Below, one piece after another: positions 25,310 through 34,248 of a DNA stretch of 64,000 bases. The notes below the pieces were generated by a model. It worked only from the letters and a program-made list of their open reading frames with translations, did no database searches and was not told the DNA's origin. The first letter of the stretch is position 1. Every line of letters begins with the position of its first letter. The stretch lies in sequence record OP168898.1; one strand, given 5' to 3'. The position numbers and the translations under genes are program-made. This stretch comes from Escherichia phage ZCEC14.

Positions 25310-25618
25310 ATGAAAACATTTAAAGAATTTATCAATGAAGCGGCTGCGCCAAAGACATTCGTTATTAATACTCAGACGAGTCTTGACGATGAGTATGCAG
25401 AGGCAATTCTGAAGTCACTTGCTAAGAACGGCGTTGAAGTAATCGCTTCGGACTTTAAGAAAGGGGCTTCCGAGATGTTTATTTCTATAACTAAAGGATC
25501 TAAAGCTAAGATCAAATCATCATTCGGAGTTGCTCGTACCGATCAAATCGACAATCATGACTTTAAACAAACTGGCGTTAAACGGCAGAACACAATTGCA
25601 TCACGCGGAATAAAATAG
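25310..25618 (+). CDS. Internal-protein-like ORF with capsid targeting leader (MKTFKEFINEA)
   Basis: N-terminal leader resembles T4 ip CTS MKTYQEFIAEA; basic 102-aa protein; cassette promoter upstream. Confidence 0.7.
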   Translation: MKTFKEFINEAAAPKTFVINTQTSLDDEYAEAILKSLAKNGVEVIASDFKKGASEMFISITKGSKAKIKSSFGVARTDQIDNHDFKQTGVKRQNTIASRGIK

Positions 25619-25627
25619 TTTATAAAC

Positions 25628-25658
25628 CGTTTACTTTTAGATGGGGTAGTGATACTAT
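25628..25658 (+). promoter_or_regulatory. T4-type early promoter (cassette copy 2)
   Basis: GTTTAC 25628-25633 and GTGATACTATTACCCTATCAACTACTGAGGAGAATAAAATG module. Confidence 0.6.
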
Positions 25659-25686
25659 TACCCTATCAACTACTGAGGAGAATAAA

Positions 25687-25910
25687 ATGAAAACATCTAA
25701 AGAATTTATTGTAGAAGCTAAAAGACGCGAAGACGAACTGCCTTTTGTTTCAAAAACCTTTGATGGAACATTGTCTGATTTTAAAAAATTCCTAATGATA
25801 AACTTGCTAAATTGGTTGGTTCTATCAGTGAAAAAGGTGGCAAGGTCACATTTTCTGCTCAAGGTGTTGCCAATCTTAAAAAACTTTTGAAAGCCGCTGG
25901 TGTTGAATAA
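25687..25910 (+). pseudogene. CTS-leader gene (MKTSKEFIVEA) interrupted by a -1 frameshift at an A6 run
   Basis: Frame 1 ORF 25687-25890 ends in low-complexity tail; frame 0 from 25785 to stop 25908-25910 encodes KIPNDKLAKLVGSISEKGGKVTFSAQGVANLKKLLKAAGVE; A7 instead of A6 at 25783-25788 would fuse them. Confidence 0.55.
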
Positions 25911-25916
25911 ATCGTT

Positions 25917-25947
25917 TACATAGGGTTTTAGTTGTGATACTATTACC
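25917..25947 (+). promoter_or_regulatory. T4-type early promoter (cassette copy 3)
   Basis: GTTTACA 25917-25923, TGATACTAT -10-like, same RBS module before ATG 25972. Confidence 0.6.
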
Positions 25948-25971
25948 CTATCAACTACTGAGGAGAATAAA

Positions 25972-26157
25972 ATGAAACGTTGTGAATTAATTCGAAATGT
26001 TGCTATTGCAATTTCTGCTTCCGCTTTTAGTTTTTCAATGTTTGTTGGATTTATATGTGGATTATTAACTACAGCAGAAAATGTGTTTTCACTTGTAGTA
26101 GCATTTTTAATTGGTTTAATTGCTATCGTTATGGATAAAATTTCTAAAGGTGAATAG
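25972..26157 (+). CDS. Small hydrophobic membrane protein (61 aa)
   Basis: Two predicted TM segments; driven by the cassette promoter/RBS but lacks the CTS leader. Confidence 0.55.
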   Translation: MKRCELIRNVAIAISASAFSFSMFVGFICGLLTTAENVFSLVVAFLIGLIAIVMDKISKGE

Positions 26158-26158
26158 A

Positions 26159-26539
26159 ATGTATAAAGTGTACGCGGATTATCAGGCTAATCCATCTGAA
26201 AAGCCAGGTTGTCAAATTGGATGGGCTCATGATACTTTACTTGAAGCAGTAGATGCTGCTCAAAAATTGGGATATAAATATGTAGAGATTGTTCAACCGT
26301 CAGGAAAAGTTATTACTCTTGAAGAGTTCAATAACATTAAACCGAACTTTTTACTTTTTGCAGGTGATAATTATTATCCTCGTGGTGGATATGCTGATTT
26401 AATCGCGAAAGCCGCCACTGAAGATGAACTCCGTGACATTATCAAAGAAAATGAAAACAAACCAGATTATGGTTCCAATCGCTTTGATTGGTGGCAAATT
26501 GTAAATGCCAATACGCATACTATTGTTGATGAAGGTTGA
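26159..26539 (+). CDS. Hypothetical protein (126 aa)
   Basis: ATG 26159 immediately after stop of preceding ORF; ORF-track start at 26120 overlaps upstream gene. Confidence 0.55.
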   Translation: MYKVYADYQANPSEKPGCQIGWAHDTLLEAVDAAQKLGYKYVEIVQPSGKVITLEEFNNIKPNFLLFAGDNYYPRGGYADLIAKAATEDELRDIIKENENKPDYGSNRFDWWQIVNANTHTIVDEG

Positions 26540-26829
26540 TAATGATTCTTTATGCTAAAGTATCGTCTATTGAAAATGGATATAAATATGATCAAGACGC
26601 GGCTAAAGCCTTGATTGATGATTATGGCATTTTAACATGTTTTGAAGTTGAAAAAGTTTATATTGACCGTTCATCTTCTCAAGTTAAATTAGTGAAAGAA
26701 GACCGTAAATTTAACACAGTTAACTTTGATTTCTTTATTGAAACGGAAAAAGGTCCTCTTGAATATGATATTTTCAAGAATCCTTTGGGTCTTGAATGTA
26801 TCGTAAATACGTATCATCATAAATGGTAA
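26536..26829 (+). CDS. Hypothetical protein (97 aa)
   Basis: ATGA start/stop overlap with preceding ORF; phage-like codon usage. Confidence 0.55.
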   Translation: MIMILYAKVSSIENGYKYDQDAAKALIDDYGILTCFEVEKVYIDRSSSQVKLVKEDRKFNTVNFDFFIETEKGPLEYDIFKNPLGLECIVNTYHHKW

Positions 26830-26926
26830 ATATGCTTTAAGAATTATTTGTTATTATTAACTCATACCGCACTGATTAATACCCTCTATCATCAAGGGTT
26901 CTTGTTTGAGAGCCTTTGTTAATAAT

Positions 26927-26999
26927 TGGGAATTAGCCAAGTTGGTAAGGCACTGGATTTTGATTCCAGGATGCAAAGGTTCGAGTCCTTTATTCCCAG
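26927..26999 (+). tRNA. tRNA-Gln (anticodon UUG)
   Basis: Acceptor TGGGAAT/ATTCCCA, anticodon loop TTTTGAT, T-arm GGTTCGAGTCC. Confidence 0.85.
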
Positions 27000-32292: not shown

Positions 32293-32295
32293 TTT

Positions 32296-32316
32296 TATAA
32301 ATACCTTCTATAAATA
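32296..32316 (+). promoter_or_regulatory. Tandem T4 late promoters (TATAAATA x2) for gene e
   Basis: TATAAATA at 32296-32303 and 32309-32316, then RBS TAGGAGG and ATG 32330. Confidence 0.7.
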
Positions 32317-32329
32317 CTTAGGAGGTATT

Positions 32330-32818
32330 ATGAATATATTTGAAATGTTACGTATAGATGAAGGTCTTAGACTTAAAATCTATAAAGACACAGAAGGCTA
32401 TTACACTATTGGCATCGGTCATTTGCTTACAAAAAGTCCATCACTTAATGTTGCTAAATCTGAATTAGATAAAGCTATTGGGCGTAATTGCAATGGTGTA
32501 ATTACAAAAGATGAGGCTGAAAAACTCTTTAATCAAGATGTTGATGCGGCTGTTCGCGGAATTTTAAGAAATGCTAAATTAAAACCGGTTTATGATTCTC
32601 TTGATGCGGTTCGTCGTTGTGCATTGATTAATATGGTCTTCCAAATGGGAGAAACCGGTGTGGCAGGATTTACTAACTCTTTACGTATGCTTCAGCAAAA
32701 ACGCTGGGATGAAGCAGCAGTTAACTTAGCTAAAAGTAGATGGTATAATCAAACACCTAATCGCGCGAAACGCGTAATCTCAACATTTAAAACAGGAACT
32801 TGGAAAGCGTATATATGA
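32330..32818 (+). CDS. e: Endolysin (T4 lysozyme, gene e)
   Basis: 162 aa; [33 protein letters not shown] is the T4 lysozyme N-terminus with catalytic Glu/Asp. Confidence 0.95.
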
Positions 32819-33096
32819 AAACATATAGTGAATTTTTATCAGAATCTATTCTTAACGAAGCTACTGACACATTTGCAACTAAGCTAGGTGCAGCTTTGGT
32901 TGAAGCTGAAAGTCTATTAGCACGTATTTCTGAACTTGCTAGTAAGATAGATACTCGCAAATTTGAGCGCACCAGTGATATCGTTAAGCTTGAAGCCTTG
33001 TTGCGTATGTGCGATAAACCGGAAGAAATCGCTAAGAACGGCTCGCTGATGAAACAACGTCTTGAAAAATATATTTCAGGCGCTTCAGAAAAATAG
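32815..33096 (+). CDS. Internal-protein-like ORF with CTS leader ([11 protein letters not shown]), 93 aa
   Basis: ATG 32815 overlaps stop of e; leader matches CTS pattern. Confidence 0.6.
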
Positions 33097-33107
33097 TTGT
33101 TTACTTC

Positions 33108-33130
33108 CTCCAAGGGTTTTGATATTATAC
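33108..33130 (+). promoter_or_regulatory. T4-type early promoter
   Basis: GTTTAC 33108-33113, GATATTATA -10; drives truncated denV-like ORF. Confidence 0.5.
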
Positions 33131-33155
33131 ATTCATCAACTACTTGGAGGAAATT

Positions 33156-33296
33156 ATGACCCGTATCAATTTAACACTTGTTTCTGAATTGACCGACCAA
33201 CATCTTATGGCTGAGTATCGTGAATTACCACGCGTATTTGGTGCAGTCCGTGAACATGTTCAAAACGGTTTACGCTTAAGTATTAATATGGTATAA
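33156..33296 (+). pseudogene. Truncated duplicate of denV 5' end (46 codons)
   Basis: Encodes [46 protein letters not shown], matching the first ~35 residues of denV at 34306 before diverging to a stop; same upstream TACTTGGAGG RBS. Confidence 0.7.
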
Positions 33297-33325
33297 TTAC
33301 TCTATCAAAACAAACAAGGAAACAC

Positions 33326-33904
33326 ATGAAAACATATCAAGAATTTATTGCCGAAGCTTCTGTAGTAAAGGCCAAAGGTATTAATAAAGATGAGTGGACC
33401 TACCGATCGGGAAACGGCTTTGACCCTAAAACAGCTCCTATTGAACGGTACTTAGCTACAAAGGCTTCCGACTTTAAAGCTTTCGCTTGGGAAGGACTTC
33501 GCTGGCGTACCGATCTAAATATTGAAGTTGATGGGCTTAAATTTGGCCATATTCAGGATGTTGTTGCTAGTAACTTAGACGCAGCTTTTGTTAAAGCCGA
33601 CGGTGACCTTCGTCGCTGGAATTTAAAACTGTTCTCTAAACAGAAAGGCCCGGTGTTTGTGCCTAAAGCTGGTAAATGGGTTATTGATAACAAATTAGCT
33701 AAGGCTGTCAACTACGCTGGTCTTGAATTTGCCAAGCATAAATCATCATGGAAAGGTCTTGATGCAATGGCTTTCCGTAAAGAATTTGCTGATGTTATGG
33801 CTAAAGGCGGCTTTAAGGCAGAACTAGATACCTCTAAAGGTACGTTTAAAGACGCTAATGTTCAGTACGCTTACGCCGTTGCTAATGCAGCCCGTAATTC
33901 CTAA
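33326..33904 (+). CDS. ipIII: Internal protein III
   Basis: 192 aa with MKTYQEFIAEA CTS leader; sequence recognised as T4 IPIII-like; position next to ipII/denV. Confidence 0.85.
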   Translation: MKTYQEFIAEASVVKAKGINKDEWTYRSGNGFDPKTAPIERYLATKASDFKAFAWEGLRWRTDLNIEVDGLKFGHIQDVVASNLDAAFVKADGDLRRWNLKLFSKQKGPVFVPKAGKWVIDNKLAKAVNYAGLEFAKHKSSWKGLDAMAFRKEFADVMAKGGFKAELDTSKGTFKDANVQYAYAVANAARNS

Positions 33905-33945
33905 TAAAGCTAATACTCAGACCTATTTACATTTAAAGGAAACAT

Positions 33946-34248
33946 ATGAAAACATATCAAGAATTTATTACTGAAGCGCGAGTGAGTGCAGGTAAATTAG
34001 AAGCCGCTATAAATAAAAAGGCCCATTCATTTCATGATTTGTCCGATAAAGACCGTAAGAAACTTGTAAGCCTTTATATTGACAAAGAGCGTATTCTCGC
34101 TCTTCCTGGCGCTAATGAAGGTAAACAGGCCAAGCCTTTGAATGCTGTCGAAAAGAAAATTGATAACTTTGCTTCTAAATTCGGTATGTCTATGGATGAC
34201 CTTCAGCAAGCGGCTATCGAAGCAGCTAAAGTAATTAAAGGTAAATAA
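33946..34248 (+). CDS. ipII: Internal protein II
   Basis: 100 aa with MKTYQEFITEA leader; size and position as T4 IPII. Confidence 0.85.
   Translation: MKTYQEFITEARVSAGKLEAAINKKAHSFHDLSDKDRKKLVSLYIDKERILALPGANEGKQAKPLNAVEKKIDNFASKFGMSMDDLQQAAIEAAKVIKGK

Follow-up and report, generated by a model that had tools for sequence, protein, structure and literature searches.

Escherichia phage ZCEC14 carries a known internal protein system with one unrecognised, likely member

Introduction

The internal proteins (Ips) that T-even phages inject are the first phage-encoded molecules in the host cytoplasm, and recent work shows that host range is decided by their disarming of type IV restriction enzymes. 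Packaging depends on a short N-terminal leader, the capsid-targeting sequence (CTS): the first ten residues of T4 IPIII are sufficient for packaging, even of foreign proteins, residues 4 and 7 being the most important for targeting and residues 8 and 10 for processing, and the protease gp21 cleaves after the Glu of an L/I-x-E motif (PMC9026906, a review of L. Black's work). The present study deals with six open reading frames (ORFs) that begin with such a leader in a 64,000-nucleotide stretch of Escherichia phage ZCEC14 (sequence record OP168898.1), hereafter referred to as the window.

Several Ips have been characterized functionally. IPI* is an inhibitor of GmrSD (PMC3012670), and IPIII is required for infection of ECOR17, its supply in the cytoplasm without the CTS being sufficient (PMC9391042). 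Silas et al. (2025) found that Ip1, Ip2, and Ip3 each block one GmrSD variant, with no cross-protection (PMC12373910). The same authors screened ip4-10 against further GmrSD variants without a reproducible hit, the signals seen for ip7 and ip8 not being reproduced (PMC12373910, Supplementary Fig. 9). Outside T4, the leader-bearing protein Bas37_0260, encoded at the ipI locus, inhibits McrBC (HIDEN-SEQ preprint 2025, bioRxiv 10.1101/2025.11.20.689424).

Results and Discussion

Six genes of the window start with a T4-type capsid-targeting leader

A sequence-only reading of the window had listed six leader-bearing ORFs and had named IPI* as a precedent for injected inhibitors of GmrSD, which is established. 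The six ORFs were confirmed here as follows (aa, amino acids; the arrow marks the predicted gp21 cleavage site).

25310-25618, + strand: ip7, internal head protein Ip7, 102 aa, leader MKTFKEFINE↓A; 101/102 identical to RB15 Ip7
25687-25890, + strand: ip8, internal protein Ip8, leader MKTSKEFIVE↓A; frameshifted, the intact form (74 aa) spanning 25687..25910
28556-29119, + strand: 187-aa leader-bearing ORF, candidate internal protein, leader MKTYAEFLTE↓A; member of a Tevenvirinae-wide family
32815-33096, + strand: Ip5-like internal head protein, 93 aa; its ATG lies inside the listed TTG ORF 32800-33096
33326-33904, + strand: ipIII, 192 aa, leader MKTYQEFIAE↓A; 179/192 identical to T4 IPIII (93%); phrog_5341, E=1e-117
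33946-34248, + strand: ipII, 100 aa, leader MKTYQEFITE↓A; 93/100 identical to T4 IPII; phrog_7857, E=5e-55

A six-frame scan with the pattern M[KR][TS]xx[ED]F[ILVM]x[ED], plus two looser patterns, returned exactly these six matches in 64 kb with all three patterns, and no match was obtained in 200 mononucleotide shuffles of the window. The common leader can be written as M-K-T-x-x-E-F-[IL]-x-E. Residues 8-10 and the residue that follows (INE↓A, IVE↓A, LTE↓A, LSE↓S, IAE↓A, and ITE↓A, in gene order) correspond in all six cases to [L/I]-x-E and a small residue, and positions 7, 8, and 10 fit the mapped CTS requirements in every ORF. Position 4 is aromatic (Y/F) in five of the six leaders, including that of the 187-aa ORF. 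The assignment of these sequences to the packaging leader type of T4 is thus borne out at the experimentally mapped positions 4, 7, 8, and 10, Ser4 of Ip8 excepted.

Two of the three sites at which the ORFs are found are the known ip hot-spots (57B–trna.4 and e–denV), and the third is located between rnaC and e.8. We consider it rather probable that the T-even Ip system is represented in the region by six genes, of which five are intact, with the 187-aa ORF most likely representing a further member. The identification of ipIII and ipII was correct; in contrast, only the 187-aa ORF deserves its earlier description as a leader gene without a recognised counterpart, since the ORFs at 25310 (Ip7), 25687 (Ip8), and 32815 (an Ip5 paralogue) belong to types known since Repoila et al. 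(1994). Five of the six Ip genes therefore offer nothing new, and what emerges is a known Ip system with one unrecognised, likely member.

PHROGs families of internal head or virion proteins were found for five of the six ORFs. Comparisons of the mature parts with Pfam, NCBIfam, and PDB sequences gave sub-threshold noise alone. Once the leader is set aside, Ip7, Ip8, the Ip5-like protein, and the product of the 187-aa ORF show no similarity to IPI, IPII, IPIII, or Bas37_0260, so that homology to an Ip with demonstrated inhibitory activity is restricted to ipII and ipIII. The mature parts were also compared with expectation for a shortage of internal [LI]xE motifs, as a possible signature of residence alongside gp21; this approach was discarded, because expected counts ranged from less than 1 to about 2 and nothing was significant.

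According to the mechanism established for T4, which is extended here to the window phage, the 10-residue CTS would bind each protein to the gp22 scaffolding core during prohead assembly, the prohead protease gp21 would cut after Glu10 of [LI]-x-E, and the mature, mostly basic protein would remain with the packaged DNA and enter the host with it. Owing to this co-injection, an Ip could act ahead of any phage gene expression. At 93% identity to their T4 counterparts, IpII and IpIII of the window most likely block two different GmrSD type IV enzymes, as the T4 proteins do.

A different origin of the leader was considered, namely that recombination between ip cassettes left it behind as a portable 5' end, translation start included, which by itself confers no capsid targeting on the newer proteins. 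The leader DNA is similar among the ip genes (22-30 of 33 nucleotides, nt), promoter and ribosome-binding-site (RBS) cassettes are repeated around them, and deletion and insertion junctions fall in promoter or terminator repeats. However, the residues retained are those mapped as functional, ten CTS residues are enough to package foreign proteins (PMC9026906), and the 187-aa family keeps the leader peptide with different codons and variant residues in other genera, at 22-32% identity. This origin thus appears very improbable.

The 187-aa ORF occupies a terminator-bounded cassette absent from T4

The immediate surroundings of the 187-aa ORF contain three further elements.

28438..28466, + strand: terminator hairpin at the 3' end of the rnaC homologue, 5' boundary of the cassette (terminator scan and alignment to T4 rnaC)
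28510..28517, + strand: AATAAATA, identical at 7/8 positions to the T4 late promoter TATAAATA and located 46 nt 5' of the ATG of the 187-aa ORF
29128..29151, + strand: terminator hairpin closing the cassette; T4 sequence resumes right after its T-run

The cassette is flanked by two terminator-like 28-nt direct repeats with a spacing of 687 nt, whereas T4 has a single copy of the repeat with nothing inserted and lacks the cassette. An exact TATAAATA is present 33-43 nt 5' of the ATG in four orthologue lineages (JS98, KMB19, COW86c, and JQD51), and GATAAATA occupies the promoter position in the orthologues of phage CHI14 and of a metagenomic contig (L005). The 187-aa protein would accordingly be expressed late, from a promoter of its own, then be cut at LTE↓A and packaged; both packaging and cleavage are predictions from the leader.

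The mature part of the protein (19.7 kDa, isoelectric point (pI) 9.54) is close to IPIII in size and charge. It belongs to phrog_2280, described as "unknown function", and gave no match to the named Ips Ip5, Ip7, and Ip8. Comparison of the Tequatrovirus copies revealed 15-17 synonymous versus 3-5 non-synonymous codon differences, about 5:1, which denotes purifying selection. An AlphaFold2 model built with 18 homologues (predicted local distance difference test score, pLDDT, 77.7) predicts a flexible, low-confidence leader, a small helical N-terminal domain, a disordered linker, and a confident C-terminal helical hairpin; the linker is Pro/Ala/Lys-rich in most relatives. Sequence and fold searches against solved proteins gave no similarity, the fold searches being uninformative, and no recognisable enzymatic domain was found.

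The 187-aa protein belongs to a family spread over many T4-like phages

A close copy of the ORF was found in 164 phage records, all but one of them 95-99% identical, and in 164/164 it is annotated as hypothetical. Word-indexed protein searches returned near-identical sequences only, and an exhaustive HMMER search added a single 204-aa metagenomic protein (P0013) with 32% identity over its full length. With this protein, and then a profile, as a bridge, the wider family could be reached: proteins of 186-218 aa in 350 phage records, all labelled hypothetical, from Tequatro-, Mosig-, Dhaka-, Karam-, Winkler-, and Tegunavirus as well as from Erwinia, Kosakonia, Klebsiella, and Serratia phages, with identities to the 187-aa protein of 22-32% outside Tequatrovirus. 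A scan of IMG/VR with the family alignment yielded near-identical copies only.

Despite this divergence, every full-length member examined starts with a CTS-like leader (MKTYNEFLNE↓S, MLNFKEFIAE↓S, MYTFNEFLAE↓T, MLKFKEFISE↓A, and MITFNEFLNE↓S among them), and most members have a second [VLI][LI]xE↓A site 6-8 residues further on, which recalls the long propeptide of IPI. The genomic position is also constant: the gene always follows the tRNA/rnaC terminator, and e.8 is directly downstream where annotated (JS98 and Bas36/37). The 187-aa ORF is thus a strong candidate for a widely conserved, unannotated internal head protein, as judged from leader, promoter, position, and conservation. Hundreds of sequenced T4-like phages carry a member of the family. 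Their hosts are E. coli, Shigella, Yersinia, Klebsiella, Enterobacter, Serratia, and Erwinia, and several of these phages are therapeutic candidates; the family has been overlooked because it is absent from T4 and labelled hypothetical by annotation pipelines. As probable head cargo, it becomes a concrete candidate for an anti-defence or head-assembly role.

Some individual relatives deserve mention. Contig L005 (Logan SRR28624380), from a metagenomic T4-like phage, carries at 2092-2526 an ORF for an ART-PolyVal ADP-ribosyltransferase with the leader MITFKQFLNES. This gene directly follows the 187-aa homologue, and both share the variant leader MITF..FLNES, the pattern expected if the leader tracks the head-core machinery of the phage and not the cargo. 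The ADP-ribosyltransferase is a candidate injected enzyme of an uncultured T4-like phage. RB69 has a truncated 146-aa copy (BFVD Q7Y4Z6, RB69ORF149c), 89% identical to the Tequatrovirus form, whereas its Mosigvirus relatives carry a divergent form of about 208 aa; the RB69 copy hints at exchange between genera.

Several observations weigh against the assignment of the 187-aa protein, and of the six genes as a group, to the Ip system. The literature on fPS-65/90, fHe-Yen9-01, JS98, and RB69 yielded no report of virion proteomics or N-terminal sequencing for the 187-aa homologues. The promoter of the window copy deviates from the exact late sequence, being AATAAATA, as in fPS-65. Whereas the classical ip genes are shuffled by presence and absence, this family shows broad conservation and is nearly invariant in Tequatrovirus, a pattern that suits a structural function no less than an anti-defence function. 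Neither gene 21 nor gene 22 is included in the window, and the phage probably has gp21 and gp22, given its identity of about 95% to complete Tequatrovirus genomes. Ip8 carries Ser at the targeting-critical position 4 and is frameshifted in the window. Finally, since a GmrSD panel was not reproducibly inhibited by ten ip genes, ip7 and ip8 among them, it is not established that all Ips are GmrSD inhibitors.

Possible roles of the additional internal proteins

The proposal that the additional leader-bearing proteins are injected anti-defence factors coincides with a standing hypothesis of the field. It is the accepted view of such ORFs and not a new idea; Ip2 and Ip3 each inhibit a distinct GmrSD, whereas the screen of ip4-10 lends it no reproducible hit. 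A stricter form of the proposal holds that the extra Ips, including the 187-aa protein, are inhibitors of more type IV enzymes (GmrSD, McrBC, and similar), with one target each. The one-to-one relationship of Ip1, Ip2, and Ip3 with GmrSD variants (PMC12373910) and the inhibition of McrBC by the leader-bearing Bas37_0260 point in this direction, as does the glucosylated hydroxymethylcytosine of the phage DNA, on account of which the chief danger from DNA-targeting defences comes from type IV enzymes. On the other hand, apart from the lack of reproducible inhibition of the tested GmrSD variants by ip4-10, the mature parts resemble none of IPI, IPII, IPIII, and Bas37_0260, and no solved protein is similar to them in structure or sequence. 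We regard this form as possible, although with somewhat less than even chances.

Alternatively, the 187-aa family could constitute a head-core or DNA-associated structural protein, comparable with IPIII in head morphogenesis or with the core proteins gp67/gp68, rather than an injected effector, and might be required for growth in the phages that carry it. Its position and architecture are conserved across many Tevenvirinae genera, the ORF is near-invariant within Tequatrovirus and under purifying selection, and the predicted protein consists of helices throughout, its C-terminal part forming a long helical hairpin; most relatives also have a basic Pro/Ala/Lys-rich linker. However, T4 has no gene at this locus and the close form occurs in only 164 of about 1200 Tequatrovirus-like records, which means that the gene cannot be generally required. 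A purely structural role is accordingly somewhat unlikely, a little more so than the inhibition of further type IV enzymes.

A public transposon dataset, HIDEN-SEQ, contains an additional datum that bears on a structural role. Phages Bas36 and Bas37 (the latter KarlGJung) carry a gene 98% identical to the 187-aa ORF. The Bas37 orthologue (bas37_0243; MZ501089, 141028-141591; 184/187 identical) was hit at 1/48 TA sites and scored "Essential" (HIDEN-SEQ Extended Data Table 7), whereas all its neighbours and the two ipI-locus genes were 85-100% saturated and the other ip genes saturated. The paper makes no comment on this call, and the family identified here flags it as an unexplained entry. Were it taken literally, the 187-aa protein would be the first essential CTS-bearing cargo, missing from T4, with possible roles as a DNA-associated or core protein or as an antidote to a host- or phage-imposed factor.

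The face-value reading of the call was nevertheless rejected. According to established T4 genetics, the phage can do without hoc, inh, wac, segC, and segE, all of which belong to late-only transcription units. In the T4 table of HIDEN-SEQ, hoc (8/100), inh (1/49), wac (0/118), segC (0/43), and segE (0/62) are likewise scored "Essential", while soc, ipI-III, and 24.2/24.3 are saturated. Insertions in units that are silent early in infection may go unrecovered in HIDEN-SEQ, which would create a blind spot for late-only units. Because the same screen mis-scores dispensable late genes, the call for bas37_0243 is ambiguous: the gene may be truly essential, but it more likely forms a late-only unit insulated by terminators, in agreement with the promoter and terminator anatomy of the cassette. 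That the family is a head-internal protein truly needed by carrier phages seems improbable, more so than a structural role as such.

The e–denV locus

The remaining features of this locus that surround the Ip5-like gene, ipIII, and ipII are:

32296..32316, + strand: two exact late promoters TATAAATA upstream of the lysozyme gene e, at 32296 and 32309
33144..33296, + strand: remnant of a second denV copy (first ~42 codons), in a 50-codon ORF fused to the ipIII promoter (alignment with phage SP1)

The ORF at 32815 is an Ip5 paralogue by sequence comparison. Its product belongs to phrog_3499, "internal head protein" (E=1e-46), and is 48-51% identical to Ip5 of T2/PP01 (tblastn), with 41/93 identical residues in a global alignment with RB15 Ip5; near-identical copies exist in about 230 phages, with the RefSeq label "internal head protein". 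Its mature part has a pI of 6.3 and three more [LI]xE motifs. The leader is different from and shorter than that of RB15 Ip5 (MKTFKEFATKTTITE↓S), and the gene adjoins e, unlike RB15 Ip5, which is at the ipI locus. Since its ATG overlaps the stop codon of gene e (ATATGA), the late promoters at 32296 and 32309 would also drive the Ip5-like gene.

Downstream, about 575 bp have been lost with respect to phage SP1, between AAACGGT (in denV) and AAACAGT (before the ipIII promoter). This deletion took the rest of the first denV copy together with an 84-aa leader-bearing Ip gene (MKMYQEFIAEA...). A complete denV is located at 34306, after ipII. An exact TATAAATA at 34008, inside ipII and about 300 nt 5' of denV, is either a late promoter or a chance match.

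The ip7–ip8 locus

The gene ip7 is preceded by a cassette that is shared with T4 ipI:

25245..25309, + strand: early-type promoter and ribosome-binding cassette, GTTTACA-N17-TACTAT (direct-repeat families D1-D3 and promoter scan)

The region upstream of T4 ipI has the same architecture and a near-identical sequence. No ipI orthologue is present in the window, the ipI locus being occupied by ip7 and ip8. Within 120 nt, ip7, ip8, and ipIII have early-type promoters only, exactly like T4 ipI/II/III. An early-promoter/RBS cassette of 46-71 nt (GTTTAC..GTGATACTATTACCCTATCAACTACTGAGGAGAATAAAATGA) occurs three times between 25245 and 25977, before ip7, ip8, and trna.4; these repeats are likely substrates for cassette shuffling at this locus.

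Ip7, Ip8, and the Ip5-like protein are members of known Ip families. The mature part of Ip7 is 9.9 kDa with a pI of 9.65, and the RB15 Ip7 sequence was deposited in 1994. The ip8 gene is broken in the window: alignment to phage G4498 and to RB15 Ip8 shows an A6 run at 25783-25788 where relatives have A7, so that the frame shifts after codon 33 and the remainder is readable in an overlapping frame to 25910. The phrog_8765 match covers residues 1-51 only, and the frame-repaired protein (74 aa) agrees with RB15 Ip8 at 69/74 residues and is 100% identical to that of phage VEc74. The frameshift reflects either a true pseudogene or a homopolymer sequencing error.

The possibility that Bas37_0260 corresponds to Ip7 or Ip8 of the window was rejected. 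It is a distinct 77-aa protein (MKTYQEFIAE↓TADVKVEF...), located in KarlGJung MZ501089, and its gene is absent from the window.

Gene order and genomic context

A megablast search with positions 25000-34500 of the window matched about 1200 phage records, nearly all T4-like; the best matches had 82-89% query coverage and ~95% identity, and no record was identical. The window phage is a Tequatrovirus. Its gene order on the + strand is syntenic with the T4 map but reversed: gene 1, 57A, 57B, two leader-bearing ORFs, trna.4/.3/.2, and ten tRNAs, followed by a 116-aa ORF, the rnaD/rnaC homologues, the 187-aa ORF, e.8 through e.2, nudE, and e, and finally by the Ip5-like ORF, the denV fragment, ipIII, ipII, and denV.

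Between 26927 and 28126 there are ten tRNA genes (Gln, Leu, Gly, Pro, Ser, Thr, Met, Tyr, Asn, and Arg) versus eight in T4, and the homing endonuclease gene segB is absent from this region. The 116-aa ORF (27776-28126), whose function is unassigned, sits between tRNA-Arg and the rnaD/rnaC homologues; the latter, at 28130-28465, are near homologues of the T4 stable RNAs rnaD and rnaC (species 2 and 1). These RNAs have no Rfam family, and Rfam reported the tRNAs alone.

Comparison with known internal protein systems

Alt and other cargo of T4-like phages with a CTS or propeptide, which include injected ADP-ribosyltransferases, are delivered from the head core and processed by gp21, as proposed here for the 187-aa protein; unlike this Alt-type cargo, the 187-aa protein has no recognisable enzymatic domain. 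T4 IPI, IPII, and IPIII share with the window Ips the same 10-residue leader (Phe7 and [IL]-x-E at 8-10), the same loci, and small, mostly basic mature proteins, whereas no relationship to them exists in the mature parts of Ip7, Ip8, the Ip5-like protein, or the 187-aa protein. Bas37_0260, for its part, resembles the window Ips in leader type and in the kind of locus it occupies, and shows that non-T4 Ips can hit other type IV systems.

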